This document shows positions 38,397-55,732 of a stretch of DNA of 56,864 nucleotides, piece by piece. Both the position numbers and the translations under genes were made by a program. The DNA comes from Candidatus Omnitrophota bacterium (GTDB lineage Bacteria; Omnitrophota; Gorgyraeia; Zapsychrales; Zapsychraceae). The DNA lies in contig JAGOSC010000007.1 in assembly GCA_018062515.1 (NCBI GenBank), positions 1 through 56,864 of the forward strand, given 5' to 3'. Under the pieces are notes generated by a model that was not told where the DNA came from, searched no databases, and saw only the letters and a list, made by a program, of their open reading frames with translations. Numbering within the stretch: the first letter of the stretch is position 1; each line of letters begins with the position of its first letter.

Positions 38397-38424
38397 TTGA
38401 CAAAAAAGCAGGATTTATTAAAAT
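38397..38424 (+). promoter_or_regulatory. Sigma70-type promoter (TTGACA-16 nt-TAAAAT)
   Basis: Consensus -35 at 38397-38402 and -10 at 38419-38424. It lies in the 134-nt gap between padR and the acyl-CoA ligase gene. Confidence 0.55.
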
Positions 38425-38429
38425 CTAAC

Positions 38430-38445
38430 TAGTAAAATTTTACTA
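38430..38445. promoter_or_regulatory. Perfect 16-bp palindrome TAGTAAAATTTTACTA (candidate operator)
   Basis: Exactly self-complementary. It starts 6 nt after the -10 hexamer, so it would cover the transcription start region. Confidence 0.5.
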
Positions 38446-38489
38446 TATAGGCGTTTATTGGTCTAACTTCAATCAAATCATACGTTTAA

Positions 38490-40004
38490 ATGGGTGTTCT
38501 AATGCGAATTAATGATGTTCTGAAGCAAGTTGCCGGGAAATATCCTCAAAAACCCGCTTTAATTTTTAACGATCAAACCGTCACTTTTAAAGAGCTTAAA
38601 GATCTGGTTTATAAAACTGCCAATGTTTTACGCTCTTATGGCATCGTAAAAGGCGATAAGGTTGGAATATATTTGCCAAATGGCTTGGAATACGTTTATA
38701 GCTATTTGGCTTGTTTTTGTTTAGGGGCTGTGGCCGTGCCGCTCGATTTTATGCTGAAAGATGAAGAATTGATATCCTGCCTCGATCACTCCGAAACAAA
38801 ACTTCTCATAGCTCAAGAAAGAAAAAGCGTCGATTTACCCAATATCAAACAACAAGTTTCTAGTTTAAAAACGATTCTGATTGCTGACCAATTTTCCGAA
38901 AAGTTGAATCAAGCCAATTCAGATTTTGAAGCGGTAAATATTGCCGATCATGATCCGGCGCTGATTATGTACACGTCGGGAACAACCGGCCGTCCAAAAG
39001 GGATTTTACTCAATGCCCGTCATTTAGACGGTTCTCCGCAAGCGATGGAATATTTTGTCGACCTTTCCGATAAGGATATCAAGTTAGCCGCCATTCCGTT
39101 TAGCCACATCGGCGGATTTATTTACATTCAAAATTGCATTACGTTTGGAATCACATTGGTCATTATGGAACGGTTTAACCCGTTTGAATTTTTAGAAAAA
39201 ATCAATCGATACAAAGTCACCTGTTTTCATATTGTCCCGCCGATGTATACGGCAATTTTAACTCTTAAAGAAATTGAACGATTCGATTTGTCGTCGTTAA
39301 GATGGGTGGTTGTCTTTGGTGCGCCGAGCTCGCCTGAAATCTTGCAACGTTTTAATCAATATTGTCCCAATGCCAGGCTTCTCAATGGCTGGGGCATGAC
39401 CGAAACAACACCTCCAAATACAGTCACACCCATGAATAGTAAAAATATTGAAAGTGTTGGAAAGCCAGCACCGAATTGCAAAATCAAAATTATTGATGAT
39501 AACGATCAAGAAGTTAAAACCGGCGAAATAGGTGAGATTGTCATCAGCGGTTGGGTGGTGATGGATGAATATTATAAAGATCCTGAAGAAACAGCGCGTG
39601 TTAAACGTAATGGATGGCTGCATACCGGCGACTTAGGACGAATTGATCAAGATGGTTTTCTCTATATCGTCGGACGGAAAAAAGAAATGATTAAAGTAGC
39701 TGGTCAAATTGTTTATGCACCGGAAGTTGAAGCGACTTTTTATAAACATCCGGATATTAGCGAAGTTGCGGTTATTGGAATTAGTGATTCATTAAAGGGC
39801 GAAGCGGTTAAAGCTTTTGTCGTATTAAAGAAAGAAAGTAATGTAACAGCTGAAGATTTGCGTTATTTTGCTCGTCAACATTTAGCCAATTTTAAAGTCC
39901 CACAAAGTATTGAATTACGAAGTGAATTACCAAAAAATCGCACCGGTAAAATCGATAAAGCTTTACTGAAAGAAGAAAATTTACTCGTCGATGGAAAAAG
40001 ATGA
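38490..40004 (+). CDS. AMP-dependent acyl-CoA synthetase/ligase (ANL superfamily)
   Basis: YTSGTTGRPKG (A3), GWLHTGDLG (A8) and PKNRTGKI (A10) motifs. 504 aa. Confidence 0.9.
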   Translation: MGVLMRINDVLKQVAGKYPQKPALIFNDQTVTFKELKDLVYKTANVLRSYGIVKGDKVGIYLPNGLEYVYSYLACFCLGAVAVPLDFMLKDEELISCLDHSETKLLIAQERKSVDLPNIKQQVSSLKTILIADQFSEKLNQANSDFEAVNIADHDPALIMYTSGTTGRPKGILLNARHLDGSPQAMEYFVDLSDKDIKLAAIPFSHIGGFIYIQNCITFGITLVIMERFNPFEFLEKINRYKVTCFHIVPPMYTAILTLKEIERFDLSSLRWVVVFGAPSSPEILQRFNQYCPNARLLNGWGMTETTPPNTVTPMNSKNIESVGKPAPNCKIKIIDDNDQEVKTGEIGEIVISGWVVMDEYYKDPEETARVKRNGWLHTGDLGRIDQDGFLYIVGRKKEMIKVAGQIVYAPEVEATFYKHPDISEVAVIGISDSLKGEAVKAFVVLKKESNVTAEDLRYFARQHLANFKVPQSIELRSELPKNRTGKIDKALLKEENLLVDGKR

Positions 40005-40369
40005 TAAGAGTGAAACTGGAAAGAAAGGATACAAAGAACATATTAGGCTTCTTTACGTGTTTAAATATCATCATAATTCCTGGTTTAATAAATGCGGTTG
40101 GAATGATTCCTAATAGAATAGATGTTCTGGGTTTCTGTTTTTACATTTTTCCCTTGGTTGCCGGTTGGCTTTTTTACAACAAGGGAAAAGATATGATGGC
40201 TAAAATTATGGTATTATGCATAACTTTATCATTGATACTATTGGCGTTATGGATGTATATGCCGTTTCTCGGCAATTTTCTTATCATACCTAACATTTTT
40301 GCTTTTTTTTCGTTATTTTATTGGCTAGTGACAAATAGGAAAGGAATTGAATATGAAAGAAATGGTTAA
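40001..40369 (+). CDS. Small polytopic membrane protein (about 4 TM), unknown
   Basis: ATGA overlap with the ligase stop. Hydrophobic throughout. Confidence 0.5.
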   Translation: MIRVKLERKDTKNILGFFTCLNIIIIPGLINAVGMIPNRIDVLGFCFYIFPLVAGWLFYNKGKDMMAKIMVLCITLSLILLALWMYMPFLGNFLIIPNIFAFFSLFYWLVTNRKGIEYERNG

Positions 40370-41126
40370 AGAAGCACACATGACAGGAAAAGATTTAATG
40401 GGAATGGTTCAATTAACACCCGAGGCTGTGGGGAAATATGCGATTGTTCCTGGTCCTCGAGAACGCGCGGATGCGATTGTTAAAAGAATTACCAATCCAG
40501 TTAAGAATTTTAGTTTTATGGAATATACCATGCATACCGGTGATTATAAAGGCATCAAATTGACGACGATTAATGGGGGACGTTTTGCTCCGGATACGTC
40601 GATTACGACGGAAATTTTATGTAATGCGCAGATTAAAGGTTTAATCCGCGTTGGCAGTTGCGGGGCCATGCGTGCTGATATGAAGGTCGGAGATATTATT
40701 GTCGTTGACACGGCGATTAAAGGTGACGGAGTTACCAAATATTATGTGAATGATGATTTTGTACCAAAAGCTGATCCGCATTTATCAAAAATTTTGACAA
40801 ACATCGCTAAAAATTCACTTCAGGCTAACGGTCTCGTCGGAAATACAGTCCACGTCGGTCCTTGCTGGACGACGGATGCGATATTAAGAGAAACACGGGA
40901 ACATGTCTCTAAGGCGGTTAGTCAAGGCGCTATCGCGGTCGATATGGTGACCTCCGCGTTATTAACTATTTGTAATCTTTATAAAATTCCAGCGGCCGTT
41001 ATTTTGGCAGTCAGCGACAATGTCATCACCGGTGAAATGGGATTTATGAATCCGGATTATTATATGGCAGAAGGTGCAATTATCAATATCGCCCTCGATG
41101 CGATTATGGAATTAGAAAAGAAATAA
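40353..41126 (+). CDS. NP-I (PNP/UDP) family nucleoside phosphorylase-like protein, paralogue 1
   Basis: VPGPRERA..., IRVGSCGA and MKVGDIIV pattern resembling Udp/DeoD-type phosphorylases. The ATG at 40353 follows AAGGA. Substrate cannot be assigned. Confidence 0.7.
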   Translation: MKEMVKEAHMTGKDLMGMVQLTPEAVGKYAIVPGPRERADAIVKRITNPVKNFSFMEYTMHTGDYKGIKLTTINGGRFAPDTSITTEILCNAQIKGLIRVGSCGAMRADMKVGDIIVVDTAIKGDGVTKYYVNDDFVPKADPHLSKILTNIAKNSLQANGLVGNTVHVGPCWTTDAILRETREHVSKAVSQGAIAVDMVTSALLTICNLYKIPAAVILAVSDNVITGEMGFMNPDYYMAEGAIINIALDAIMELEKK

Positions 41127-41136
41127 GGATAAATTT

Positions 41137-41892
41137 ATGACAGGCATGACCAAAGATATTTATCTTTCCGGTAAAGAATTAACGCAAATGGTTCAGTTGT
41201 TGCCAAAGGACGTAGGGCGATATGCAGTTGTTCCGGGTCCGCGTGATCGGTTGAAAGGAATTTTAGCGGAAGTAGAGAAGCCGGTCAAAAATTTCAGTTT
41301 TATGGAATACGAAATGCATACCGGTCATATCGACGGGGTCAAAGCCACTTTTATGAATGGCGGACGATACTCGGCAGACACAGCGATTACGACGGAATTA
41401 TTATGTGCCGTCGAGATTCCGATTATTTTCCGTTTGGGAACGTGTGGCGCTTTGCGTGAAGACATGAAAATTGGTGATGTGGTCGTTGTTGAAAATGCAT
41501 TATCCAATGACGGTGTGACGCCATTCTATATCAATGATAAAAATTTTGAACCAAAATCCGATATGAAGTTGGTGAATGAAGTCGTCAAAGCGGTCGAATC
41601 CGTCGGATTAAAAGTCCATCGGGGTAAAGTGTGGTCACATGACGCATTGTTAAGACAGACACGTGAGAGCGTCAACCAAGCGATTGACCAGGGGTGTCTC
41701 GCTTCGGATATGGTGTCCTCAACATTTTTAAGTATTTGTCATTTGAATAAAACATCAGGTGTATCGATTCTTGCCGTCGGGGACAATGTCGTCAAAGGCG
41801 AATTTGGTTATTTAGATACCAATTTTTATATGACGGAATATATGTTAACCGGAGCCTGTTTTAAAGTCATTAAAAATTTAGGGATAAAATAA
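41137..41892 (+). CDS. NP-I (PNP/UDP) family nucleoside phosphorylase-like protein, paralogue 2
   Basis: Colinear with paralogue 1 (VPGPRDR, KNFSFMEYEMHTG, FRLGTCGA, MKIGDVVVV). By eye, roughly half the residues are identical. Confidence 0.7.
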   Translation: MTGMTKDIYLSGKELTQMVQLLPKDVGRYAVVPGPRDRLKGILAEVEKPVKNFSFMEYEMHTGHIDGVKATFMNGGRYSADTAITTELLCAVEIPIIFRLGTCGALREDMKIGDVVVVENALSNDGVTPFYINDKNFEPKSDMKLVNEVVKAVESVGLKVHRGKVWSHDALLRQTRESVNQAIDQGCLASDMVSSTFLSICHLNKTSGVSILAVGDNVVKGEFGYLDTNFYMTEYMLTGACFKVIKNLGIK

Positions 41893-41895
41893 AAT

Positions 41896-42885
41896 ATGAA
41901 TAAACCAGCTCACAAATTAAAAGAATCACCGTTATTTTGGCCGGCCAAATTAAAGGGCGCAACATTAAAAGTTTTGGATGAAACTCAAATTCCGAACAAA
42001 GTTGAATATATTGACGTTAAGTCGACGGGGGACGCGGTTAGAGTCATAAGACAAATGAAAACGAGAGCGTTCGGTCAATTTTTAGTTGTTTTAAATACTT
42101 TTCTTTTGGAATTAAGAGCCAATCCGTCTGTGTCCGATAAAATGCTGTTATTAAAATTGAAGAAAACGGCTGAACGATTAAATAACAGCCGGCCGACATT
42201 TCCTTTTTCGGAAGTCACGTCGATTGTGATTCACTGGGCGAATGATGCTTATGAAAAGAAATTAAATTTACGGGAAATCGTCGCTGTGAATGTTGAAGGC
42301 TATTTAAAAGGCATTCGTTATCGACGATTAGATCGTGTGAATCGTATTGCCAATTTACTTCAAGATGGTGATCGAATTTTGACGCATTGTAATGTTAGCG
42401 GCGAGTTAGCGATGGCATCTAATATTGCCGTTAATCAGAATAAAAAAATTCACTATTTCGCGACGGAAACGCGTCCGTATATGCAAGGCTCTAAGTTGAC
42501 TTGTTGGGAACTTAAACGAATGGGCGCCGATGTAACTCTCATCGCTGATAATGCCATCGGTTCGGTCATGAGTGATGGATTGGTCAATAAAGTCATCGTC
42601 GGATCTGATCGTTCTTGTGCTAATGGTGATTTTGCGAATAAAATCGGCACATATCAAATTGCTGTTTTGGCGAAAGAATTTAATTTGCCATTTTATGTTA
42701 TGACTCAACCGTCGAATAAAGTGAAAACCGGCGAAGACATTCCCATCGAAATCAGAAATGCCAATGAGCTTTTAACGTTTTATAAAAAGAAAATTGTGTC
42801 CGGTGTGATCAATGGTTTCTATCCGGGTTTTGATGTTGTTCCCAATGAATTGATTACCGAATCAATACCGATCAACGTAAATTAG
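41896..42885 (+). CDS. eIF-2B alpha/beta/delta-family sugar-phosphate isomerase (MtnA / 5-deoxyribose-1-P isomerase-like)
   Basis: LTHCNVSGELA (catalytic Cys loop), TETRPYMQG and VGSDRSCANGDFANKIGTYQ (catalytic Asp) motifs. 329 aa. Confidence 0.8.
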   Translation: MNKPAHKLKESPLFWPAKLKGATLKVLDETQIPNKVEYIDVKSTGDAVRVIRQMKTRAFGQFLVVLNTFLLELRANPSVSDKMLLLKLKKTAERLNNSRPTFPFSEVTSIVIHWANDAYEKKLNLREIVAVNVEGYLKGIRYRRLDRVNRIANLLQDGDRILTHCNVSGELAMASNIAVNQNKKIHYFATETRPYMQGSKLTCWELKRMGADVTLIADNAIGSVMSDGLVNKVIVGSDRSCANGDFANKIGTYQIAVLAKEFNLPFYVMTQPSNKVKTGEDIPIEIRNANELLTFYKKKIVSGVINGFYPGFDVVPNELITESIPINVN

Positions 42886-42893: not shown

Positions 42894-43409
42894 ATGAAGG
42901 CTGAACAAGAAAAGCAACAAGATGTATTAAGTGAATTTAAAGAATCGGTCGTATTGATGCAGGGCGTATTTGACCCGATATATTTTGATTTAGTCAAAAA
43001 AAATAATTTCAAAGACGTGTTTGTCCTCGAGGGACGCCCATCATTAGAATCCGCGCAATTTTCGTGTAATGAATTGATTAAACGAAAAATCAAACCGACT
43101 TTAATTGCCGATAGTATGGCGGGTTTTTTGTTTTATAAGAATTTAGTCAAGGAAGTATGGTTATCCTATCAGCAGGTCGACGAAAAAGGTGCTCTATGCC
43201 AAATTGGTGCTTTGATTTTGGGTGTACTCGGGAAAAAACACAATGTGCCGGTTAAAGTTTTTCCTAATCCTTATAAAGTAAATCTCGTCGGCCATCAGAG
43301 AGAAATCTTTTATTTCAATGGCGTGAAGGTTGCTCCCAGCAATATTAAGGGATATGTGCCGTTGGCGGAATGGGTGCCGAGGAAATATATAACGGAGATT
43401 AATTCGTAA
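42894..43409 (+). CDS. Truncated, degenerate eIF-2B-family paralogue (C-terminal Rossmann half only)
   Basis: 171 aa. VLEGRPSLES..ELIKRKIKPTLIADSMAGFLF aligns with TETRPYMQG..TLIADNAIGSVM of the upstream gene. The GSDR catalytic segment reads LSYQ, and the N-terminal domain with the Cys loop is absent. Confidence 0.55.
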   Translation: MKAEQEKQQDVLSEFKESVVLMQGVFDPIYFDLVKKNNFKDVFVLEGRPSLESAQFSCNELIKRKIKPTLIADSMAGFLFYKNLVKEVWLSYQQVDEKGALCQIGALILGVLGKKHNVPVKVFPNPYKVNLVGHQREIFYFNGVKVAPSNIKGYVPLAEWVPRKYITEINS

Positions 43410-44422
43410 TGGCTGATCATATTCAACAATTAAAAGATCATATCATCACCATTGGCCGCCTATTGTGGGAAAAAGATTTAGTCAGCGGTCTTAACGGTAA
43501 CATCAGCGCACGCGTGGATGAAGAAAGAATTTTGTTGACAGCGACGGGATCTTGTTTAGGTATGCTGCAGGAAGAAGATATTCTCCTCATGCGTTTATCT
43601 GGGGAAATGATTGATGAAGGAAAAGTATCGACGGAAAAACTTCTTCATACCGAAATTTATAAAAATTTCAAAGAAACGGCGGCCGTCATACACACGCATT
43701 TAACGTATACCAATGCATACTTTCTAGAGAATGCTGTTTTAAAGCCGAGAATTTTTGAGACACGTATTTATTTAGGCGAAGTTACCGGTGTTCCGCAGAA
43801 TACACCAGCGGTGACCGACGCTGCACCCGTCATCGATTCTTTGAAAAGAAACAATATTGTTGCGCTACGTAATCATGGTGTTGTCGCCATGGGATTAGAA
43901 CACTTTGATTGTTTTTTATTGATTCAAGCGCTTGAAGAAGCAGCCAAGATTGATGCGATTAGTCGGTTATATACAAAGAAGGATCAAGGTTCAACTCATG
44001 ATCAAAAAACGGAAATACAAAATCAGCCGCAGCCTTCAAGTGGAAAAAAATATGCATTATTCTCGTCGGAACAAATCGCGGACATTGTTAAATATGTGAA
44101 TGAAGATCCTCAAATGGCTGAATTAGGTCAAAAGACAAACATGACGATGGATTTAGCGGTTAAGCTGGACGAGACTGGTAAAACATACAGCTTTAGATTC
44201 AAACAAGGCAGAATATCGGAAGTCGGAAATGATGAAAATGCGGAATTTTTAATTAATGCGCCCGAAAAAATTTGGCGAGCGGTTTTTAACCGAGAAATTG
44301 ATCCGTTCGTCGCTACGACGCAAAAGAAAATGCATTTGCGTGGAGATTTCGCGAAGATCTCTAAATGGTATGCGCCTTGTTCACGCGTATTTGAATTGTG
44401 GTCACGGGTACCGGTAGAATAA
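43409..44422 (+). CDS. Class II aldolase/adducin-domain protein fused to a C-terminal SCP2-like domain
   Basis: N-terminal half: LNGNISAR, HTEIY, AVIHTH and RNHGVVAMG (class II aldolase/MtnB/FucA-like metal ligands). Low-complexity linker KKDQGSTHDQKTEIQNQPQPSSGKK. The C-terminal ~120 aa are SCP2-like (..FLINAPEKIWRAVFNREIDPFVATTQKKMHLRGDFAK). TAATG overlap with the previous gene. Confidence 0.72.
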   Translation: MADHIQQLKDHIITIGRLLWEKDLVSGLNGNISARVDEERILLTATGSCLGMLQEEDILLMRLSGEMIDEGKVSTEKLLHTEIYKNFKETAAVIHTHLTYTNAYFLENAVLKPRIFETRIYLGEVTGVPQNTPAVTDAAPVIDSLKRNNIVALRNHGVVAMGLEHFDCFLLIQALEEAAKIDAISRLYTKKDQGSTHDQKTEIQNQPQPSSGKKYALFSSEQIADIVKYVNEDPQMAELGQKTNMTMDLAVKLDETGKTYSFRFKQGRISEVGNDENAEFLINAPEKIWRAVFNREIDPFVATTQKKMHLRGDFAKISKWYAPCSRVFELWSRVPVE

Positions 44423-45909
44423 TGAAAGCAATTGAATTGAGACAATATGAGCTTTTTATCGACGGAAAGTTAGTGTCCGCTCAAAAGTATTTTGATGCCA
44501 TCAATCCTTCGAACGGAGAAGTTTTTGCCAAGATCGCTGATGCTTCCGTTGAAGATATGCATAAAGCCATAGCTGCTGCTCGTCGTGCATTTGATCATGG
44601 GCCTTGGAAAGATTTCAGTTTTGCTCAACGCGGAATTTATCTGAAGAAGATGGCGAAGAAGATCCGAGACCATGCCAAGGAATTAGCTGAATTAGAAACA
44701 TTGAGTGTAGGAAAAACGAGTAAACATGCGAATTTTATTGATGTTCCAACAGCCATTGAAACATTTGAGTATTTTAGTGATGTTAATTTAGAAGGTTTAA
44801 CGCGGATTAATCCCGTCGACGCACCTGTAAAAAGTTTAACCAAGAAAGAACCGCTCGGCGTCATTGGAAGTTTATTTGCTTACAATTATCCGATTATTTA
44901 TTCAGCCTGGAAATTAGCCCCGGCTTTGATGACGGGAAATTGCGTGATTCTAAAACCATCGCCTAAGGCCTGCGCTTCGGTCATGCGTTTAGCGCAATTG
45001 TTGGCTGATTGTGATTTACCTAACGGAGTGATTAATATCGTTTCGACACAAGATAATAAAACCGCTATGGCTTTAGTCAGTCATCCCGACGTCAATATGA
45101 TCAGTTTTACCGGCGGAAATAAAACCGGACAGCTCATTATGCAAGAAGCAGCGAAGACGACTAAAAAGATTTCATTAGAGCTTGGTGGTAAATCACCGAA
45201 TATTGTTTTTGCGGATTGTGAAATGGAAGCGGCTTTAGGAGGAACATTGTCGTCGATATTTATTAATCAAGGACAAATGTGTACGGCCGGATCACGATTA
45301 TTCGTCGAGGAATCAATTTATGAACCGTTTGTTAAGAGATTAGTTGAACGTGCGCGATCGCTTAAAATAGGGGACGCGTCGGATTACACGACGGAATTCG
45401 GACCAATGACTTCAAAAGAACAGAGAGATGCTGTTTTAACTCATATTAATGAAGCGGTGAAGGACGGAGCAAAAATAGCGTGCGGCGGAAAAATACCGAC
45501 GGAAGTTTCTTCAAAAGGATATTATATTGAGCCGACCATTTTAACAAATGTAAACAATAGTATGGCGATTGTCCGCGATGAGGTGTTTGGGCCGGTCTTA
45601 TGTATTTTTAAATTCATCGACGAGAAAAATGTTATTCAAATGGCTAATGATTCCATATTTGGTTTAGCTGCGAGTGTATGGACCAAAGATCCGGCTAAAG
45701 CTGAGCGCGTGACGAATCAATTACAAGTCGGAACGGTTTGGATCAATACGTATGGCGGATTTTATAATCAAGCTCCTTTTGGAGGATATAAGCAGAGTGG
45801 ATTTGGACGCGAGTTAGGCCCAGAAGGAATGCTGGAATATATGCAGACAAAACATGTTTGTATCGACCAGACACCCGGGGGTATGCCTTTAGCCGCGTCG
45901 TGGTTCTGA
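44422..45909 (+). CDS. NAD(P)-dependent aldehyde dehydrogenase
   Basis: ELGGKSP and QGQMCTAGSR (catalytic Cys) motifs. The ATG at 44422 overlaps the aldolase stop (TAATG). Confidence 0.92.
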   Translation: MKAIELRQYELFIDGKLVSAQKYFDAINPSNGEVFAKIADASVEDMHKAIAAARRAFDHGPWKDFSFAQRGIYLKKMAKKIRDHAKELAELETLSVGKTSKHANFIDVPTAIETFEYFSDVNLEGLTRINPVDAPVKSLTKKEPLGVIGSLFAYNYPIIYSAWKLAPALMTGNCVILKPSPKACASVMRLAQLLADCDLPNGVINIVSTQDNKTAMALVSHPDVNMISFTGGNKTGQLIMQEAAKTTKKISLELGGKSPNIVFADCEMEAALGGTLSSIFINQGQMCTAGSRLFVEESIYEPFVKRLVERARSLKIGDASDYTTEFGPMTSKEQRDAVLTHINEAVKDGAKIACGGKIPTEVSSKGYYIEPTILTNVNNSMAIVRDEVFGPVLCIFKFIDEKNVIQMANDSIFGLAASVWTKDPAKAERVTNQLQVGTVWINTYGGFYNQAPFGGYKQSGFGRELGPEGMLEYMQTKHVCIDQTPGGMPLAASWF

Positions 45910-48238: not shown

Positions 48239-49258
48239 ATGAAAATTGCCATTATCGGGGCTGGTGCCATAGGATCAACCTTGGCGGCTTACTTACATAA
48301 AGCCGGAAAAGAAGTGGTCTTAATTGGACAAGAAGGACAGGTCAAAGTTATTAATTCAAAAGGCCTAATGATCCGTCGAGCGGGAAACGATGAAGTTTTT
48401 AAAATTAAAACTTTATCAAAACTCGATCGGGAATATGACTTAGTCATTTTTGCGACGAAGACACAAGATCTTGAGGCGGCTTATTATCAAAACTCTGATT
48501 ATTTGGAAAATTGTTTTGTGTTAACGACTCAGAATGGCGTCCAGGGGGATAATATTTTGAGTAGTCATTTTGACAGAAAAAATCAGATGAGCAGTATTGT
48601 CATGTTTGGTGCTACGTATATAAATCCTGGTGAAATCATCTTTAATTTTCCTGGTGATTGGATTGTCGGTAAACCATTTACCGACAATGACCCGACATTT
48701 CATGGAATATTATCCGAGCTTAAGATGCCCGAAATTCCGATTGTTGTATCCAACGATATTTATGGAATGAAATATTTAAAATTATTTATTAATTTTAATA
48801 ATTGTATTCCGGCGGTGATTGGAAAATCCATGCAGGAAACATTTTCAGATTTGGATCTTTGTCGTTTGAGTATTCGCTTATTGAAAGAAGGATTAGATAT
48901 TCTTAAGACAGTTAATATTGAAATCGTTTCATTGCCTACATTTCCTAAGGAAAGAATTATTGGATTGACCCAAATGCCTGAAGATCAGGCGGCGGGGATT
49001 GTGCAGCAGACATTAATGAAATTAAGCAAAGAACCTTTATACGGTTCAATTTTGCAAAGTATTATGCGCGGTAAACCGTCGGAGATTGAATTTATCAACG
49101 GTGAAGTAGTGGCCTTAGCCAAAGCCATACAGCTTGAAGCTCCTTTGAATCAACAAATTGTTGATCTTGTTCACGTGGTGGAACAAAAGCATAAATATTT
49201 TACCGTCGAGGAAATTAAAGAGAAATTTAAATTAACAGAATCAGTTTTAAAGAAATAA
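48239..49258 (+). CDS. Ketopantoate-reductase (PanE/ApbA) family oxidoreductase
   Basis: MKIAIIGAGAIGS Rossmann N-terminus. Length is 339 aa and the layout is typical of the family. Substrate unknown. Confidence 0.7.
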   Translation: MKIAIIGAGAIGSTLAAYLHKAGKEVVLIGQEGQVKVINSKGLMIRRAGNDEVFKIKTLSKLDREYDLVIFATKTQDLEAAYYQNSDYLENCFVLTTQNGVQGDNILSSHFDRKNQMSSIVMFGATYINPGEIIFNFPGDWIVGKPFTDNDPTFHGILSELKMPEIPIVVSNDIYGMKYLKLFINFNNCIPAVIGKSMQETFSDLDLCRLSIRLLKEGLDILKTVNIEIVSLPTFPKERIIGLTQMPEDQAAGIVQQTLMKLSKEPLYGSILQSIMRGKPSEIEFINGEVVALAKAIQLEAPLNQQIVDLVHVVEQKHKYFTVEEIKEKFKLTESVLKK

Positions 49259-49269: not shown

Positions 49270-50535
49270 ATGAAAAAAAGAAGAGTGGTCGTGACGGGGA
49301 TTGGTGTCATCTCTCCGAATGGAATAGGAAAAGAAGCTTGTTGGGACGGAATGATTAATGGCCGATCAGCTATTAAAAGAGTGACTGAATTTGATGTCTC
49401 CATGTTTAATACAAAAATCGCTGCCCAGGTGCATGATTTTGATCCGATTAAATTGGGATTAACGCGAGACGAAGCGATTCGTACCGATCGTTATGTTCAG
49501 TTTGCCATGGTCGCTGCGCGCATGGCTTTGGAAGATTCTGGAATCAATTTGGAAAAGATTGATCGAACCCGCATGGGTGTTTCATTGGCTAATGCGATTT
49601 GCGGAACAAAATATATGGAAGAAGAATTCGCGCTCGTCACCGACAGCGGAAAAAATCCAATCGATCCGACGATCGTTCGGCCAGATCTTTACGATGCATC
49701 GATGTTTAATACACCGTCGAGTGAAATTTCAGCTAAGTATGGATTAAAAGGTGTTTGCAACACAATCTCGACGGGATGTACCGCCGGAACAGATTCGGTT
49801 GGATTTTCTTTTGAAGCGATTCAAGACGGGGATGTTGACATTATGGTTACCGGAGCGTCGGAAGCGCCGATCACACCCATTACCTTTGGTGCTTTTGATA
49901 CAGTGAATGTTTTATCGGTTCATAATGAACATCCCGAAAAAGCTTCACGGCCATTTGATTCCAAACGTAATGGATTTGTTATTTCTGAAGGCGCCGGTTT
50001 ATTGGTCGTCGAGGAATTGGAGCATGCCAAAGCCCGAGGCGCCAGAATTTATTGTGAAATCGTTGGATTCGGTACTACGTGCAATGCATTTCACATGACC
50101 GATTTACCGCCGGAAGGTGACGCGAAAGCGGCATGCATCAATATGGCCCTCGAAGATGCCCAAGTTAAACCGACGGATATTGACTATATTAATGCTCATG
50201 GATCATCCACGCGGCAGAATGATGTCTTCGAAACAAATGCTTATAAAATGGTTTTTGGCGATTATGCATATAAAGTGCCGATCAGTTCGCTTAAGTCGAT
50301 GATCGGCCATCCGCTCGCCGGTGCTAATGGCATTGAATTAGCAGTGGGCGCATTAATTTTTGAACGCGACATGCTTCCTCCGACGATTAATCAAGAGTTT
50401 CCTGATCCACAGTGTGACCTTGATTACGTTCCCAATAAAGCGAGAAAGCTACGCGTCAACTGTATGTTAAAAACATCCAGCGGATTTTCAGGAATACATT
50501 CGGCGATGGTTTTACGTCGATATAATAAAAATTAG
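49270..50535 (+). CDS. Beta-ketoacyl synthase, type II PKS KS-alpha-like
   Basis: ISTGCTAGTD (Cys170, nt 49777-49779), NAFHMTD, INAHGSST, SLKSMIGHPLGA and DPQCDLDYVP motifs. 421 aa. Confidence 0.9.
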   Translation: MKKRRVVVTGIGVISPNGIGKEACWDGMINGRSAIKRVTEFDVSMFNTKIAAQVHDFDPIKLGLTRDEAIRTDRYVQFAMVAARMALEDSGINLEKIDRTRMGVSLANAICGTKYMEEEFALVTDSGKNPIDPTIVRPDLYDASMFNTPSSEISAKYGLKGVCNTISTGCTAGTDSVGFSFEAIQDGDVDIMVTGASEAPITPITFGAFDTVNVLSVHNEHPEKASRPFDSKRNGFVISEGAGLLVVEELEHAKARGARIYCEIVGFGTTCNAFHMTDLPPEGDAKAACINMALEDAQVKPTDIDYINAHGSSTRQNDVFETNAYKMVFGDYAYKVPISSLKSMIGHPLAGANGIELAVGALIFERDMLPPTINQEFPDPQCDLDYVPNKARKLRVNCMLKTSSGFSGIHSAMVLRRYNKN

Positions 50536-50543: not shown

Positions 50544-51776
50544 ATGAATAAAATAGCCATCACTGGTTTTGGTGTTGTCTCGCCCAGCGGGATTGATGCT
50601 AGAAAATTTTGGGCCAACGTTAAAGCTGGTCATTCTGCCGTCGAATCCATTACGCGATTTGATGCTTCAAAATATACATCACGCATTGCGGGCCATGTCC
50701 ATGAACTCGACGTTTACAGTAGTGTGTCGTCGAGATTATTGAAGAAAATTGATGTTTTTTCTCATATGGCGCTGGTAGCGTCGGAGATGGCTATTACCGA
50801 TGCGAAATTGGATTTAGAAAAAGAAAATCTCAATCGTGCCGGAATTTTTATGGGCAATGCAATTGGCGGTTGGCTGTACGGTGAAACGGAATTACGCGAT
50901 TTATATATTGAAGGGCGTGAAGGCGTCAGTCCTTTTATGGCGTCCGCGTGGTTTCCCGCGGCCCCTCAGGGACAAGTTTCGATTCGCTACGGAATGAAAG
51001 GTTATAGTAAAACGGTCGTCGCTGATCGAGCCAGTTCATTAATGGCTATCGCTTATGGCGCGCGAACGTTAAATCGAGGTAAAAATGATTTTATTCTCGC
51101 TGGTGGAATGGAAGCGCCGGTAACTCCTTATGCTTTATTATGCTGCCAAACATCGGGTGTTTTAACACAACAAAATGAAAATCCCTCGACGGCGTATAAA
51201 CCTTTTGACCGAAACCGCGACGGGTTCGCGATTGCCGAAGGTGCGGGTGTTGTTACTTTAGAATCTTTCGAGAGGGCTCAAAAACGCGGAGCACATGTTT
51301 ACGCCAACATTGTCGGCTTCGGAACGACGACGGATGGCGTTGACCGAATTGATCCATCTGATGATGGAATAGAGTTAGCGCGAGCGATAAAGTTAGCTCT
51401 CGACGACGCAAAGTTGAAACCAAGTGATATTGATTATATTTGTCTCGATGGAGCCGCAACAATACTCGGCGATATTGGCGAAACAAAAGCCATTAAACAA
51501 GTTTTTAATGGTCATTCTAAGAAGTTACTTTGTTCAGCGCCGAAAGCTACTTATGGAAATATGTTGGGCGCGACAGGTGCCGTCGATGTCATCACCACTA
51601 TTTTGGCGATGAAACATAATATTGTTCCACCGACGACTAATTCGAATGATCCAGATCCGCAATGTGATTTAAATATATGCAGAAATACCGCTCAAGAACG
51701 TCAAATTAATAATGCATTGATTATTAATCGCGGACGCGGCGGTATCAACTGTGCTTTAATTTTACAAAAACCGTAA
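50544..51776 (+). CDS. Ketosynthase-fold partner lacking the active-site Cys (chain-length-factor / KS-beta-like)
   Basis: KS fold throughout. The active-site segment reads VVADRASSLMA, with Arg162 (nt 51027-51029) where KS has Cys and CLF has Gln. DPDPQCDLN near the C-terminus. Starts 8 nt after the KS stop. Confidence 0.8.
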   Translation: MNKIAITGFGVVSPSGIDARKFWANVKAGHSAVESITRFDASKYTSRIAGHVHELDVYSSVSSRLLKKIDVFSHMALVASEMAITDAKLDLEKENLNRAGIFMGNAIGGWLYGETELRDLYIEGREGVSPFMASAWFPAAPQGQVSIRYGMKGYSKTVVADRASSLMAIAYGARTLNRGKNDFILAGGMEAPVTPYALLCCQTSGVLTQQNENPSTAYKPFDRNRDGFAIAEGAGVVTLESFERAQKRGAHVYANIVGFGTTTDGVDRIDPSDDGIELARAIKLALDDAKLKPSDIDYICLDGAATILGDIGETKAIKQVFNGHSKKLLCSAPKATYGNMLGATGAVDVITTILAMKHNIVPPTTNSNDPDPQCDLNICRNTAQERQINNALIINRGRGGINCALILQKP

Positions 51777-51800: not shown

Positions 51801-52037
51801 GTGGCTGTCGAAACAACACTTAATCGTATTTTTAATAAAGTATTAGACCTTAGTCCTGAAGATATTGTTAAGGATGAGCCTCTGGATCAAGCGCATGAAG
51901 TCGACTCAACCGAAATGGTGGAGATTTCCGTCGGGCTTAAGAAAGAATTAAAGATTGATATCGGTGATAATGAATTAAAGAAAACACATTCTTATAAAGA
52001 TATCGTCGGTATTTTAAAGGCTAAAGGAATTGCGTAA
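51801..52037 (+). CDS. Acyl carrier protein
   Basis: 78 aa. EVDSTEMVEI matches the (L/V)DS(L/T)..VE phosphopantetheine-Ser motif. GTG start with SD AAGGAGAG. Confidence 0.8.
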   Translation: MAVETTLNRIFNKVLDLSPEDIVKDEPLDQAHEVDSTEMVEISVGLKKELKIDIGDNELKKTHSYKDIVGILKAKGIA

Positions 52038-52177: not shown

Positions 52178-52978
52178 ATGAAGATTATTGATTTAAGTTT
52201 GCCCATTGACGATACCTTAATAGAAACACATGACGCCAAGATTGACCGCATCACGCATGCCGCTGGAGTTGAGCATTTTAATTGGGTGGTTATGAATAAA
52301 CGGCCAGGCGGGCAAGAGGCGTTTGATCGTGGAGAAAGGGTAGCGACCAAAGAAGAAATTCCAGATGGTGAAATGTTATCATTGGAAATTGTTCATTCAT
52401 CCGTTCATATGGGAACTCACGTGGATGCTCCGTTTCACTATGGCAGTACCTGTGAAGGGAAGCCAGCCAAACAAATTGAAGATGTTCCTTTGGAATGGTG
52501 TTTTGGTCCGGGGGTTGTTCTTGATTTTACACACATGCATTATCCGCAGAATATTACTAAAAAAGAAATTATCGAAGCGTTGGACAAAATCAATTATCAC
52601 CTCAAACCTTTGGATATTGTTCTTATTTATACCGGAGGCGATAAACTTCTCGGAACGCCTGACTATGTGAATAAATATGTCGGTATGATGCCCGACGCTG
52701 TTGAATATTTGTTGGACCAGGGAATTAAGATGATGGGCGTTGATACCATCGGTTTAGATCGTCCGTGTTTTGAAATGTTCAAAGAATTTTTAGAAACGAA
52801 AGATAAATCAAAGATTTGGCCGTCCCATTTTCTTGGGCGCCGGCGTGAATATTGTCATATGGAACGGTTGGGTAATTTGGGTGCGATCCCTAAACCATAT
52901 GGATTTACTGTGTCTTGTTTGCCAGTGAAGGTAAAGAATGCTGGAGCTGGATGGAGTAGGGTTGTCGCTATTGTTTAA
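52178..52978 (+). CDS. Cyclase-family protein (kynurenine-formamidase fold, PF04199-like)
   Basis: HSSVHMGTHVDAPFH metal-binding signature. 266 aa. Confidence 0.75.
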   Translation: MKIIDLSLPIDDTLIETHDAKIDRITHAAGVEHFNWVVMNKRPGGQEAFDRGERVATKEEIPDGEMLSLEIVHSSVHMGTHVDAPFHYGSTCEGKPAKQIEDVPLEWCFGPGVVLDFTHMHYPQNITKKEIIEALDKINYHLKPLDIVLIYTGGDKLLGTPDYVNKYVGMMPDAVEYLLDQGIKMMGVDTIGLDRPCFEMFKEFLETKDKSKIWPSHFLGRRREYCHMERLGNLGAIPKPYGFTVSCLPVKVKNAGAGWSRVVAIV

Positions 52979-52992
52979 AAAAGGATTTGAAT

Positions 52993-53106
52993 ATGACCGA
53001 TGATAAGAATTCAAACCAGCCTTCAAAGTACAAATTTACCCGCGATGACTTTATTTTGTTATTAGTCATTATTTGGGCCATCTGTATGATCGTTTTTCGA
53101 TATTAA
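52993..53106 (+). CDS. Candidate 37-aa single-TM micro-protein
   Basis: MTDDKNSNQPSKYKFTRDDFILLLVIIWAICMIVFRY. AAGGA lies 8 nt upstream. Below the ORF-track cutoff. Confidence 0.35.
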   Translation: MTDDKNSNQPSKYKFTRDDFILLLVIIWAICMIVFRY

Positions 53107-53151
53107 TTAGCTCTTCATACTGAATTCTTATATATTTACTCTAATATATAG

Positions 53152-53188
53152 GCAAGAAAGGGTTTTATATCTTTTCTTGCTTTTTTAT
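53152..53188 (+). terminator. Rho-independent terminator inside the accessory block
   Basis: GCAAGAAAGGG / CTTTTCTTGC stem of about 11 bp (with G-U pairs), a 7-nt loop, then TTTTTTATT. Confidence 0.65.
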
Positions 53189-53266
53189 TAAGTTTTTCAT
53201 ACTATATATATTAATTATAATTTATATAAGAAGTCTTATACGTAATAATCGTTAAGGAGGATTTTC

Positions 53267-53722
53267 ATGGCTCATACAGTCAATTCCATATTTATTCAAG
53301 CACCCTTTGAGATCACCTTTAAGATTTCCAATCATATTGAGCGCTGGACAGAGTTGTTTGGCGATGAATACGTTAGCGCGGATGTGCTGGAGCGTAAAGG
53401 TAATGAAATTACTTTTCGATTAACGGACGAAGATGGTAAATCATGGGTGTCTAAACGTTGGCTGCATCCAGAACAAAAATATGCTTATGCTTCCCGGCAT
53501 GATCCGATGTTTCCTTTTAAATATATGAAAATTGTTTGGTTTTATCATGAGCAGGATGGCGGCACGCTCATGACATGGGTACAGGATTTTGAAATGGATC
53601 CTGGATTTAAAAAATTTACGGAAGAACAGATTGCCGGATTTATTAACGAACATTCGCAGCATAATTTAAAAATTTTTAAAAACGTGATTGAGAAAGAAGC
53701 GGCGCAAACCGCCCATAAATAA
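53267..53722 (+). CDS. SRPBCC-superfamily protein (polyketide cyclase/dehydrase-like)
   Basis: 151 aa. The N-terminal ..SIFIQAPFEITFKISNHIERW.ELF.. matches the usual start of Polyketide_cyc2/TcmN-ARO-like domains. SD AAGGAGG upstream. Confidence 0.68.
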   Translation: MAHTVNSIFIQAPFEITFKISNHIERWTELFGDEYVSADVLERKGNEITFRLTDEDGKSWVSKRWLHPEQKYAYASRHDPMFPFKYMKIVWFYHEQDGGTLMTWVQDFEMDPGFKKFTEEQIAGFINEHSQHNLKIFKNVIEKEAAQTAHK

Positions 53723-53759
53723 AATTTGAGATCATCAATAAATACGAAAGTGAGTCATT

Positions 53760-54533
53760 ATGAAATTAACAGGCAAAAACGCAATTATTACTGGAGCATC
53801 AAAAGGAATTGGAAACGCGATAGCGACACGTTTGGCTATAGAAGGCGCTAATGTTGTCCTAGCGGCAAGAACCAAATCAACCCTGGATGAAGCGGTCAAT
53901 GAAATTAAAAAACAATCCAATGCGGGTGTTTTAGGTGTTGTGTGTGATGTGGCTAATTTTGAAGATTTACAAAATTTAGTCGATACGGCCCGCAAGAATT
54001 TTGGTCCGATTGATATTCTCATTAATAATGCCGGCGTGTCCAGCCAATATCCTTTCGAAAAACAACCGTTTGAAGATTTCGAAAAACTGGTCCAAACAAA
54101 CTACCTCGGATATGTCCGCCTCATTCGTCTGGTCATCAATGAAATGATTGAACGCAAACAAGGATCGATTATCAATACCGTTTCTGGTTCGACGCTGGTT
54201 GATCCAATTCCGCGCGGATTTCTAACTTACAGTTCTCTTAAGGTTGGACTGAAAGCATTCTTAAAAGGATTATTTTGGGAAATGCGTGATCATGGAATTA
54301 AAGTGACCTCAATTCTTCCTGGCGTTGTTGATTCAGACTTAACGGATAAACTTCAACATATTACGCGCGAACAAAAAGATCGTTTGATGAGTACACAGAC
54401 CGTCGTCGATATGGTCATGTTTGCATTATCTCTTCCAGCGAATGTTTGTCCTCTGGAATTAGCTGTAATTAATCAGCAAACACCATGGACGCAACCGATC
54501 ATTGATTACAAACAGCAACAGGCAAAAGCTTAA
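53760..54533 (+). CDS. Short-chain dehydrogenase/reductase (ketoreductase-type)
   Basis: TGASKGIG cofactor motif, NNAG, and a YSSLK catalytic Tyr-x3-Lys. 257 aa. Confidence 0.9.
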   Translation: MKLTGKNAIITGASKGIGNAIATRLAIEGANVVLAARTKSTLDEAVNEIKKQSNAGVLGVVCDVANFEDLQNLVDTARKNFGPIDILINNAGVSSQYPFEKQPFEDFEKLVQTNYLGYVRLIRLVINEMIERKQGSIINTVSGSTLVDPIPRGFLTYSSLKVGLKAFLKGLFWEMRDHGIKVTSILPGVVDSDLTDKLQHITREQKDRLMSTQTVVDMVMFALSLPANVCPLELAVINQQTPWTQPIIDYKQQQAKA

Positions 54534-54573
54534 AAATATTTTAAACCAAAAAAATTAAAAGGAGGTGATTAGA

Positions 54574-54807
54574 ATGGATAAAACGATAGCGACATTTTCA
54601 AAAAACAAGTTCCAGGAAATTCGCGTAGGCATCCGTGAGTTCAAAGGTAATGACCTGATTGATATCAGAACATGGACCATGACTCAAGGAACGGAAGAAA
54701 TGGTTCCTACCGCCAAAGGTGTTTCCATCAATATTCATTTATTGGCCGATTTAAAAAAATGTCTGGATGACGTGGAAAGAATTTTAAAAGAAAATAAAAT
54801 GCTTTAA
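54574..54807 (+). CDS. PC4/YdbC-like small ssDNA-binding-fold protein
   Basis: F.KN.FQEIRVGIREFKGNDLIDIRTW....G.E.MVPTAKGVSI resembles the PC4 family. The ATG at 54574 follows SD AAAGGAGG. Family call is tentative. Confidence 0.5.
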   Translation: MDKTIATFSKNKFQEIRVGIREFKGNDLIDIRTWTMTQGTEEMVPTAKGVSINIHLLADLKKCLDDVERILKENKML

Positions 54808-54820
54808 TTGACGGTTTTTC

Positions 54821-55732
54821 ATGAATCAAATCATTGATGCACATAGTCATTACATGCCGCCTGAGGTGGCACAGAATACAGCTTTTTTTAAACAAGGTTG
54901 GTCTGATGTCGGTAAGCAGCTTGAAATCATGGATCAGCATGGCATCGAAAAATCCCTCTTGTTATATCCCACCAGTGATGCTCATCTTAATATCGGCGGA
55001 TGGAATAAATTAGCCGAAATCTATAATCATAAAATCAGTGAAATTATTGCTAAATATCCGGATCGTTTTATCGGCGCTTGTGTCATTCCATTTAACGATC
55101 CTATGGGAAGAGATAGTATTTTAAAATCATTTCAGAATAATAATTTTAAAGTTCTTAGTTTGTCATCGAGTTGTGAAGGCGTTTATCTCGACGATGATTT
55201 CTTTAAACCCGTGTTTGAATATGCTCAAGCTAAGCATATTCCCATCCATGTTCACGCGCAAATTATGAATCCCATCGGGAGTGAGCGCGTCAATGACCCG
55301 TTATTGTCACCGGTATTAGAGTATGTTTTTGACGTTTCGATGTGTATCGGAAAGATGATGATGTCAGGGGTTTTTTTACAGTTTCCCGACGTGAAATTTA
55401 TCTTCCCGCATTACGGAGGAGTATTGCCGATTGTTAAAGAACGTTTTGATTCGACGTACGGGATGCTTAGAAAAAGAAACTTTGTTAAGGATCTCTCCAA
55501 ATCTCCGAGTGAATATTTTAAAAATTTGTATTTCGATACGAGCGGATCAAAATCCGTCGCCTCATTATTATGTGCATTAGAAGTTACGGATCCGTCTCAT
55601 CTTTTATTCGGCAGTGATTTTCCCGCCAATCAGAATATTTCCTCGTCGATAGATGTATTACAGCAGTCCAACCTCTCCAAGGATGATATTCACAAAATAC
55701 GTTACAGTAATATTTTAAGCCTACTGAATTAA
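54821..55732 (+). CDS. Amidohydrolase_2 (ACMSD-type metal-dependent hydrolase/decarboxylase) family protein
   Basis: IIDAHSHYMPPE N-terminal His-x-His, internal HVH, and C-terminal LFGSDFP (Asp ligand). 303 aa. Confidence 0.75.
   Translation: MNQIIDAHSHYMPPEVAQNTAFFKQGWSDVGKQLEIMDQHGIEKSLLLYPTSDAHLNIGGWNKLAEIYNHKISEIIAKYPDRFIGACVIPFNDPMGRDSILKSFQNNNFKVLSLSSSCEGVYLDDDFFKPVFEYAQAKHIPIHVHAQIMNPIGSERVNDPLLSPVLEYVFDVSMCIGKMMMSGVFLQFPDVKFIFPHYGGVLPIVKERFDSTYGMLRKRNFVKDLSKSPSEYFKNLYFDTSGSKSVASLLCALEVTDPSHLLFGSDFPANQNISSSIDVLQQSNLSKDDIHKIRYSNILSLLN

Follow-up and report, generated by a model that had tools for sequence, protein, structure and literature searches.

The stretch of DNA analysed in this work (hereafter the window, 56,864 nucleotides of a Candidatus Omnitrophota contig) carries, ahead of an rRNA operon, a gene cluster in which an aromatic type II polyketide synthase (PKS) is combined with a B12-binding radical SAM (S-adenosylmethionine) enzyme and with a set of salvage-like enzymes predicted to cleave nucleosides. 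These gene families also cluster together in over 100 related loci, where at least four gene orders occur. The set has been kept together despite changes in its internal order and outer neighbours; it must therefore have been under selection to stay together, which argues for a single functional unit made of the polyketide, radical SAM and salvage-like modules. The cluster has been inherited vertically across much of Omnitrophota under strong constraint, and the promoter and palindromic operator in front of it are conserved across the phylum. On balance, though by no wide measure, we favour the view that the cluster is one vertically inherited biosynthetic operon system, in which the PKS and its tailoring enzymes act together with a six-gene branch that would both clear an inhibitory nucleoside and feed an acyl unit back to the PKS. 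Substrates, product and the use of the acyl unit are predictions.

Gene content and control region

A preliminary description of the window had placed 20 open reading frames (ORFs) on the + strand between positions 38490 and 55732, and this is borne out by an ORF scan and by Pfam and NCBIfam searches. Genes and surrounding signals are the following:

37840..38355, + strand: PadR-family repressor gene (padR), last gene of the upstream operon and candidate regulator of the cluster (PF03551, E = 4e-12)
38397-38424, + strand: promoter-like site, TTGACA-16-TAAAAT (consensus scan)
38430-38445: perfect 16-bp palindrome TAGTAAAATTTTACTA, just 3' of the promoter-like site, candidate PadR operator
38490..40004, + strand: AMP-forming acyl ligase of the ANL family (PF00501 and PF13193)
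40001..40369, + strand: hydrophobic membrane ORF of 122 aa, lineage-specific (no Pfam or NCBIfam family)
40353..41126, + strand: nucleoside phosphorylase (PNP), DeoD/Udp type, copy a (PF01048, PNP_UDP_1, E = 5e-35)
41137..41892, + strand: PNP copy b, a recent duplicate (PF01048)
41896..42885, + strand: MtnA-type 5-substituted ribose-1-phosphate isomerase of the IF-2B family (MtnA; TIGR00524 cut-off passed)
42894..43409, + strand: stand-alone C-terminal half of the IF-2B/MtnA fold (half; PF01008 profile positions 126-271 only)
43409..44422, + strand: class II (metal-dependent) aldolase fused to an SCP2 lipid-binding domain (PF00596 and PF02036)
44422..45909, + strand: NAD(P)-dependent aldehyde dehydrogenase (ALDH; PF00171, E = 2e-166)
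45996..46352, + strand: hydrophobic membrane ORF of 118 aa, sequence not conserved (no family)
46391..47860, + strand: B12-binding radical SAM enzyme, distantly BchE/HpnJ-like (rSAM; PF04055 and PF02310)
47945..48223, + strand: p92, helical protein of 92 aa, DUF2621/PCP_red type (matches of the homologue family)
48239..49258, + strand: ketopantoate-reductase-like (ApbA) NAD(P)H oxidoreductase (KPR; PF02558 and PF08546; TIGR00745 subfamily cut-off passed)
49270..50535, + strand: catalytic ketosynthase (KS-alpha; solved-structure relatives, catalytic residues)
50544..51776, + strand: chain-length-factor-like inactive partner (KS-beta; catalytic residues lost)
51801..52037, + strand: acyl carrier protein (ACP; PF00550, DS(T) serine motif in the translation)
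52178..52978, + strand: PF04199 'putative cyclase' of the kynurenine formamidase/isatin hydrolase fold (Cyc; PF04199)
53150-53182, + strand: terminator-like hairpin plus T run, the whole element spanning 53150..53190 (consensus scan)
53267..53722, + strand: SRPBCC aromatase/cyclase, TcmN/WhiE type (ARO; solved-structure relatives)
53760..54533, + strand: short-chain dehydrogenase (SDR), candidate polyketide ketoreductase (PF00106 and PF08659)
54565..54807, + strand: PC4-like protein of single-stranded-DNA-binding fold (PF02229, E = 4e-13)
54821..55732, + strand: Amidohydro_2 protein, candidate non-oxidative aromatic-acid decarboxylase (PF04909)
55886-55914: rRNA promoter-like site (consensus scan)

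The gene for 16S rRNA starts at 56029. The tight junctions reported in the preliminary description are found again in the ORF scan and the translations. Genes overlap by 4 nt at 40004/40001, the ORF ending at 40369 runs over the ATG of the next gene at 40353, a single base is shared at both 43409 and 44422, and short gaps occur at 41892->41896, 49258->49270 and 50535->50544. A hydrophobic micro-ORF of 33 codons (52038-52139) begins right after the stop codon of the ACP gene, and a second one, of 37 codons, hydrophobic as well, spans 52993-53106. For the 122-aa and 118-aa membrane ORFs (40001-40369 and 45996-46352) no homologue has been detected in any related locus, the closest relative included, the 118-aa ORF giving chance-level matches only; the notion that they are conserved parts of the cluster was thus dropped. 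In other genomes, the position between ALDH and rSAM holds unrelated small ORFs. The small hydrophobic ORFs and the micro-ORFs may be fast-evolving membrane peptides, or not be genes at all.

The scans detected all the signals which had been proposed to bracket the block, that is, padR with promoter and palindrome on the left, and the rRNA promoter on the right. The internal terminator had also been predicted, and corresponds to a strong hairpin followed by a T run; it likely splits the cluster into two transcription units. The idea of one regulated promoter at the head of the block gains from the conservation of promoter and palindrome. The arrangement CTTGAC-N17-TAAAAT followed by ACTAGTAAAATTTTACTAGT is the same in nine related loci that include the padR-ligase spacer, and 102 stretches matching the promoter/operator pattern are present among 185,579 GTDB species genomes. 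Most of them (89 of 102) directly precede the first gene of the cluster, whichever gene that is; the few matches in unrelated taxa look like chance. No second copy of the operator was found in the window, either ahead of padR or at the head of the second transcription unit. The padR gene precedes the conserved promoter and operator in most of the loci reaching that far, usually just upstream; no padR gene was seen upstream of the cluster in one of the gene orders (architecture D, see below). PadR plausibly pairs with this operator, and would control the cluster as a repressor.

Conserved linkage and inheritance

Related loci were collected by scanning species-representative genomes with KS-alpha. 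The scan yielded 376 relatives, of which the best 80 (loci L001-L080) are 76-95% identical to the window protein, and belong to metagenome-assembled genomes (MAGs) of Candidatus Omnitrophota, or to MAGs carrying the same locus and labelled 'uncultured Planctomycetales'. More distant relatives were retrieved with the help of the operator pattern, by scanning metagenomes and by looking up contigs, and linkage was assessed by tblastn of the window proteins against the related loci. Four architectures have been recognized:

Architecture A (window; every long-enough locus among the best 80): ligase-PNP-MtnA-half-aldolase-ALDH-rSAM-p92-KPR-KS-KS-ACP-Cyc, then ARO-SDR-PC4-decarboxylase
Architecture B (KS-alpha 71-74% identical): begins with p92; rSAM between KS-beta and ACP; tail PNP-MtnA-aldolase-ALDH-ligase
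Architecture C (KS-alpha 61-65% identical): head ligase-PNP; tail SDR-rSAM-decarboxylase-MtnA-aldolase-ALDH; no 16S hit in the locus
Architecture D: as in the window, with rSAM between KS-beta and ACP; no padR upstream, no 16S downstream

The proposal that the modules work as one system stands up well to this comparison. Across the four gene orders, the radical SAM gene remains clustered with both the PKS and the salvage-like set, and the block called for in the synteny check is conserved in related genomes and MAGs, rearranged relatives included. Dispersal of the modules to unlinked loci, which would have spoken against the proposal, was not seen in the related genomes. Genes of the salvage-like branch were found in all 23 loci having at least 9 kb on either side of KS-alpha.

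The genes might conceivably be neighbours by descent only, and carry out independent functions in a chromosomal region which is syntenic in general. The 16S rRNA gene, unrelated to the others, lies after the cluster in almost every architecture A locus with room for it, some upstream genes are syntenic too, and the whole window is co-directional. Since the surrounding synteny is partly conserved, gene order alone is weaker evidence than the rearrangements. These, however, largely refute the hypothesis, which we hold to be very improbable: the gene set survives four internal orders, the loss of the rRNA neighbour and, in architecture D, of the upstream padR; upstream genes differ between A and B; genes overlap or lie a few bases apart at their junctions; and the conserved promoter and operator always stand before the first gene, whichever it is. 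The co-directionality, on the other hand, is not special to the block, because all ORFs of at least 110 aa but one in the first 38 kb are also on the + strand.

In architecture A, the 16S rRNA gene lies 130-570 nt after the cluster, and is co-directional with it, in nearly all of the about 30 loci with room, though the 5' halves of the 16S sequences in these loci are only 71-98% identical. The cluster is anchored ahead of the rRNA operon in this architecture; in B and D its downstream neighbours are other genes. Upstream, the cluster is preceded by a pyruvate kinase gene in A and by accA in B, where padR overlaps the end of accA by 4-7 nt (L323, L324 and L327). AccA is the carboxyltransferase alpha protein of acetyl-CoA carboxylase, an enzyme family which makes malonyl-CoA.

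Vertical inheritance is supported by the comparison of KS-alpha identity with the identity of the 5' half of the 16S rRNA gene (Spearman 0.72, p = 0.001, n = 17). On the same contigs, pyruvate kinase is 53-80% identical where KS-alpha is 83-95% identical. Median identities to the window proteins in the first 80 loci are:

Cyclase: 83%
KS-alpha: 82%
Radical SAM: 76%
KS-beta: 74%
Shunt enzymes: 57-66%
ACP: 54%

The preliminary description had contrasted the accessory-type content of the block with the housekeeping 38 kb to its left, and had proposed to test for horizontal acquisition. Such an acquisition finds no support, and was rejected. The GC content of the block is the same as in the rest of the window, GC3 does not differ (0.379 and 0.366), codon usage is only marginally different (permutation fraction about 0.03), and KS-alpha tracks 16S rRNA.

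A few additional observations concern the related loci and the flanks of the block. In many genomes among L001-L080, small mobile-looking genes are inserted in the gaps Cyc/SRPBCC, KS-alpha/KS-beta, ALDH/rSAM and p92/KPR, and leave the gene order undisturbed. They include nucleotidyltransferase/AbiEii-like and HEPN-like pairs, a HATPase protein and a Y1 transposase. The Cyc/SRPBCC gap, which hosts the terminator in the window, is the commonest insertion site of toxin-antitoxin-type genes in other loci, and a duplicated 22-codon copy of the 3' end of KS-alpha lies beside one such insertion in L005. Many MAGs deposited as 'uncultured Planctomycetales/Planctomycetia bacterium' (L010, L014, L015, L017-L020 and others) feature the Omnitrophota cluster, operator and 16S neighbour, and are probably Omnitrophota mislabelled at deposition. 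GC skew is positive throughout the window, as expected of a long leading-strand stretch into an rRNA operon. The pyruvate kinase gene adjoining padR (36781-37824) is short (347 aa), and its product so divergent that a scan with six 8-residue words of the protein detected no Omnitrophota relative, only Bacillales-type enzymes about 43% identical; copies 52-80% identical were then retrieved from related loci by tblastn. Further upstream, the region 27763-32057 encodes an EAL-domain response regulator and a GH57/GH77 (4-alpha-glucanotransferase) pair, of glycogen-type metabolism, and a 569-aa ORF (33726-35435) has no convincing family.

Polyketide core and tailoring genes

The best solved relatives of KS-alpha are the actinorhodin ketosynthase (394 bits) and AntD (391 bits), FabF scoring lower (372 bits). 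Catalytic residues are kept, the cysteine in STGCTAG and the histidines in FHMTD and NAHGSS. In KS-beta the active-site cysteine is changed into arginine (ADRASS), and both histidines are gone, a loss shared by architectures A, B and C. Both proteins also score highly against NCBIfam FabF models, but the hypothesis of housekeeping FabF enzymes was rejected, as KS-beta is inactive and the cyclases are of polyketide type. The SRPBCC protein matches 'polyketide cyclase' structures (3tl1, 3tvr, 2kf2) and the TcmN aromatase/cyclase with E = 1e-23 to 1e-25, the PF04199 cyclase is 45% identical to a cyclase encoded beside Ktedonobacter KS genes, 3-ketoacyl-ACP reductase is the best NCBIfam model for the SDR, and the structures nearest to the Amidohydro_2 protein are 5-carboxyvanillate decarboxylase (LigW) and gamma-resorcylate decarboxylase (E = 5e-24 to 1e-16). 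Judged by these matches, the core is a genuine, ordinary aromatic type II PKS, and the part specific to Omnitrophota is made of the genes surrounding it. According to the model we propose, KS-alpha, the inactive KS-beta and ACP would build a poly-beta-keto chain, which the TcmN/WhiE-type aromatase/cyclase and the PF04199 cyclase would fold; the SDR may reduce the polyketide, and the LigW-like enzyme decarboxylate it.

The accessory content varies among loci. The PC4-like gene is limited to architecture A, and other small proteins replace it in B and D. An MFS (major facilitator superfamily) exporter, a cupin, an NTF2-like protein and a second SRPBCC-like protein are added in other loci; the MFS transporter gene is present in 40 loci, between aromatase/cyclase and SDR. 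In the nearest relative of the window (L001, KS-alpha 95% identical) this interval hosts the MFS transporter along with a class I SAM methyltransferase (14837-16883). The corresponding gap in the window (53722-53760) measures only 37 nt, the two genes having been lost here. The window contains no phosphopantetheinyl transferase (PPTase), oxygenase or O-methyltransferase gene.

Relatives outside Omnitrophota were sought in a 50%-representative library and by scanning their loci. The best-scoring single-domain KS-alpha proteins in the library are only about 51-52% identical to that of the window; one such entry covers Ktedonobacter, Ktedonospora and Phytohabitans. Homologue searches with KS-beta were filled by Omnitrophota sequences at least 75% identical, and gave no outgroup. 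The closest outside relatives, by these comparisons, are Ktedonobacteria clusters, which have only the core in common with the window. As in the window, the Ktedonobacter loci include cyclase, KS-alpha (52%), KS-beta (38%), ACP and ARO (35%), in the same local order. Their other genes, in contrast, encode a flavin monooxygenase, an O-methyltransferase, a PPTase and an ABC exporter; ligase, shunt and reductase genes are missing, and a distant radical SAM hit (23%) occurs in one locus only. Two further loci, L114 and L119 (among which Marinifilum sp.), combine a PF04199-type cyclase with an SRPBCC-like ORF and with a KS that shares 46% identity with KS-alpha of the window; KS-beta was not detected in either locus, and they may represent a different, single-KS arrangement.

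Actinobacterial chain-length factors (CLFs) carry a glutamine at the former cysteine position. In KS-beta this position holds Asp-Arg or Asp-Lys, a replacement which recurs in architectures B and C, and in Ktedonobacter. On these alignments, the missing glutamine is a feature of a wider clade, Ktedonobacter included, rather than of this cluster alone.

Type II PKSs are known mainly from Actinobacteria, usually as patchy, horizontally mobile clusters. The act and ant clusters have likewise KS-alpha and an inactive KS-beta, a discrete ACP, a TcmN/WhiE-type ARO, a PF04199 cyclase and an SDR, and the Photorhabdus ant cluster features an AMP-ligase, as the Omnitrophota cluster does. Differences are nonetheless marked. 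Tailoring genes in Omnitrophota are of the B12-radical SAM, ketopantoate-reductase-like and PCP_red-like types; the nucleoside-cleaving branch is always present (23 of 23 loci); and the cluster is inherited vertically, and is conserved like 16S rRNA. A KS-CLF census listed Candidatus Omnitrophica among 14 phyla with hits, and placed them in a clade whose members are mostly not actinobacterial and score low against the CLF model (PMC10132072). The census deals with occurrence only, and does not report gene set, conservation, operator or link to the shunt. Polyketides are not mentioned in a large paper on Omnitrophota genomics, and the combination of a PKS with a pathway for SAM by-products was not found for type II systems in the searchable literature.

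Tailoring would be carried out by the B12-radical SAM enzyme, the ketopantoate-reductase-like enzyme and the PCP_red/DUF2621 protein. BchE is the best NCBIfam model for the radical SAM enzyme (175 bits, cut-off 481), the gene of which occupies three different positions within the cluster in other architectures. Homologues of p92 match DUF2621 in 20 out of 20 cases and PCP_red in 17 out of 20; p92 is present in all architectures, and always heads a p92-KPR-KS block. Anaerobic lifestyles have been described for many Omnitrophota (PMC10066038). This, together with the contrasting content of the Ktedonobacter cluster, suggests that the tailoring enzymes are oxygen-independent, and stand in place of oxygen-dependent tailoring.

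The preliminary description had also considered a lipid-type pathway, with ladderane synthesis as precedent. In a pathway of this kind, ladderane-like or of the fatty-acid type, an uncommon membrane lipid would be assembled by the KS pair, ACP and the radical SAM enzyme. Surveys of the antiSMASH type did report 'ladderane' clusters in Omnitrophota MAGs (PMC9902471), and the scores against FabF models and the SCP2 domain fit such a pathway. The radical SAM enzyme, however, scores 74 bits against the ladderane-type model TIGR04072 (cut-off 360), below its scores against the BchE and HpnJ models. In addition, the cluster encodes a TcmN/WhiE-type ARO, a second cyclase and an enzyme resembling aromatic-acid decarboxylases, with cupin and NTF2-like proteins in other loci, and no dehydratase or enoyl reductase gene was found among the Pfam families of its genes. 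The hypothesis was rejected on the radical SAM model score and on the aromatase/cyclase genes, and its probability is slight.

Predicted nucleoside-cleaving branch and its possible roles

The branch, or shunt, includes the AMP-ligase, the phosphorylase, the MtnA-type isomerase with its half-domain partner, the aldolase-SCP2 fusion and ALDH. Phosphorylase, isomerase and class II aldolase make up an established route for 5-deoxyribose leading to dihydroxyacetone phosphate (DHAP) (PMC6079011). The phosphorylase is conserved in all architectures, and is nearest to adenosine/purine nucleoside phosphorylases (DeoD-like) and to the Sulfolobus methylthioadenosine (MTA) phosphorylase among solved structures, a family match from which specificity is not readable. 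A second tandem copy was resolved in four related loci only (L001, L016, L203 and L222), one copy being present elsewhere. The isomerase scores 189.8 against TIGR00524 (cut-off 185.85), is closer to solved methylthioribose-1-phosphate (MTR-1-P) isomerases (157 bits) than to ribose-1,5-bisphosphate isomerase (85 bits), and its THCN and GSDR..NGD motifs align with an MTR-1-P isomerase sequence. The IF-2B half gene, present in architectures A, D and some C loci, and absent in B, encodes a probably non-catalytic protein. The best NCBIfam model for the aldolase is of the fuculose-phosphate type; the enzyme scores only 37 bits against the characterised 5-deoxyribulose-1-phosphate aldolase 6btd, which we take to be DrdA, and the family also holds dehydratases, epimerases and decarboxylases. 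The fusion to SCP2 is kept in architectures B and D. ALDH is generic by family models, and lies downstream of the aldolase in every architecture. FadD5, MenE, FadD13 and 4CL are the solved structures nearest to the ligase, acetyl-CoA synthetase being far.

The ligase always adjoins a shunt gene, and never KS or ACP genes: it lies beside the phosphorylase in A, C and D, and beside ALDH, or one DUF3108 gene away from it, in B. Moreover, the five genes in the tail of architecture B follow the exact order of the predicted pathway. Both facts favour a single route in which ligase and shunt would turn a 5'-deoxyadenosine-type nucleoside into an acyl adenylate or thioester. In such a route, a SAM-derived nucleoside (5'-deoxyadenosine from the radical SAM step, or MTA) would be phosphorolysed, the resulting sugar 1-phosphate isomerised and cleaved into DHAP and a C2 aldehyde, the aldehyde oxidised to the acid, and the acid adenylated. 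The branch would then have a double role, as it would clear the inhibitory nucleoside and return an acyl unit as thioester, either as primer or as acetyl/malonyl supply. A chain of reactions running from phosphorylase to ligase, and ending in the priming of the KS pair, had been put forward in the preliminary description. It is plausible: the place of the ligase and the gene order of architecture B support it, while the distance of the ligase from acetyl-CoA synthetase, the gene content of one B lineage and a possible role in clearance weigh against it.

The set resembles the DHAP shunt in that DHAP and a C2 aldehyde are the predicted products from 5'-deoxyadenosine or MTA (PMC6079011). It departs from the shunt by its DeoD/Udp-like phosphorylase, by the SCP2 domain joined to the aldolase, by an additional IF-2B half-domain protein, by the prolongation of the route to an activated acid through ALDH and a FadD/MenE-like AMP-ligase, and by its location inside a polyketide cluster. 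The logic is also common to the fluoroacetate-type pathway, in which phosphorylase, isomerase, aldolase and aldehyde dehydrogenase turn a SAM-derived 5'-substituted 5'-deoxyadenosine into X-CH2-CHO and X-CH2-COOH, and to a second pathway which uses the X-CH2 unit as polyketide building block. However, no SAM-dependent halogenase was found among the Pfam hits of the 20 ORFs, nor fluorinase, chlorinase or other SAM-cleaving enzymes; the cluster may work in a similar way, but is not a member of that group.

The main rival hypothesis is that the branch serves the clearance of by-products only. The DHAP shunt would remove 5'-deoxyadenosine, and ALDH and ligase would pass the C2 unit to central metabolism, the PKS remaining unfed. 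The phosphorylase-isomerase-aldolase trio matches the described salvage of 5-deoxyribose to DHAP, and 5'-deoxyadenosine inhibits radical SAM enzymes (PMC6079011). The radical SAM gene is part of the cluster in most architectures, and in one architecture B lineage two enzymes typical of aldehyde disposal, DeoC and a Zn alcohol dehydrogenase, are inserted between aldolase and ALDH. Yet six architecture A loci retain the branch in spite of having no radical SAM gene, the salvage of acetaldehyde would hardly be expected to end in a FadD/MenE-like ligase, the SCP2 fusion is not accounted for, and a route for cell-wide detoxification should not be confined to the cluster and placed under a specialised promoter controlled by a repressor. 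Clearance alone thus deserves serious consideration, though we regard it as rather unlikely. The dedicated regulation, the confinement of the branch to the cluster and its retention in the loci devoid of radical SAM gene argue for the return of the acyl unit to the PKS.

Several facts sit uneasily with the feed-back of an acyl unit in one operon system. The six loci without radical SAM gene weaken a strict link to by-products of that enzyme. The ligase is closest to FadD, MenE and 4CL, and so distant from acetyl-CoA synthetase that acetate is no obvious substrate. DeoC and Zn alcohol dehydrogenase look like ordinary aldehyde disposal, and a lipid-binding SCP2 domain is not accounted for by a small-sugar substrate. 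The synteny around the cluster is partly conserved as well (16S downstream in A, some upstream genes). Lastly, KS-beta of Ktedonobacter also lacks the CLF glutamine, and has no ligase nearby; the missing glutamine is therefore no argument for ligase-dependent priming, and the idea that the ligase must prime for lack of that residue was dropped. SCP2 domain and ligase fit neither clearance nor feed-back well in their simple form.

An additional hypothesis is that the ligase is an acyl-ACP synthetase of the AntG type, loading the carrier protein of the PKS, the shunt genes being separate passengers. In Photorhabdus, the octaketide yield is 13-fold lower without AntG, which was proposed to load ACP (PMC6638757), and the score of KS-alpha against AntD nearly equals that against the actinorhodin KS. 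The ligase, however, is never found beside KS or ACP, but rather near phosphorylase or ALDH, and no ligase lies close to the PKS genes of the nearest outside relatives, so that we hold this explanation to be improbable.

A bolder version of the operon system may be tentatively proposed, although we doubt it more than we believe it. The branch would be biosynthetic, and not devoted to salvage: a SAM-derived 5'-substituted 5'-deoxyadenosine would be turned into an X-CH2-CO-thioester priming a type II PKS, with no halogenase involved and throughout the phylum, the product being a core, vertically inherited aromatic metabolite. X could be hydrogen or methylthio. At its boldest, X could be a hydrophobic group coming from radical adenosylation, and held by the SCP2 domain of the aldolase. 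HpnH- or MqnE-like families were not found among the NCBIfam matches of the radical SAM enzyme; radical adenosylation has been retained solely as a low-probability part of this version. If priming by X-CH2-CO were true, the product might serve, for instance, as redox carrier or as attack molecule, and not be an antibiotic of sporadic occurrence.

The vertical inheritance of a type II PKS throughout much of a phylum which is uncultured and for the most part ultra-small is an unusual pattern, and the joining of polyketide chemistry to a predicted pathway for SAM by-products is, by the searchable literature, a new combination. Should the C2 unit be fed back, a new way to prime type II PKSs would emerge. 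About 16 conserved genes make a compact set for heterologous expression, the defined operator of 16-20 bp is a handle for regulator studies, and the cluster provides a phylum-specific marker locus beside the rRNA operon. The conservation of KS-alpha is close to that of 16S rRNA and exceeds that of the neighbouring glycolytic enzyme, which suggests that the product of the cluster has a central role in the physiology of these bacteria, and is not an occasional antibiotic.

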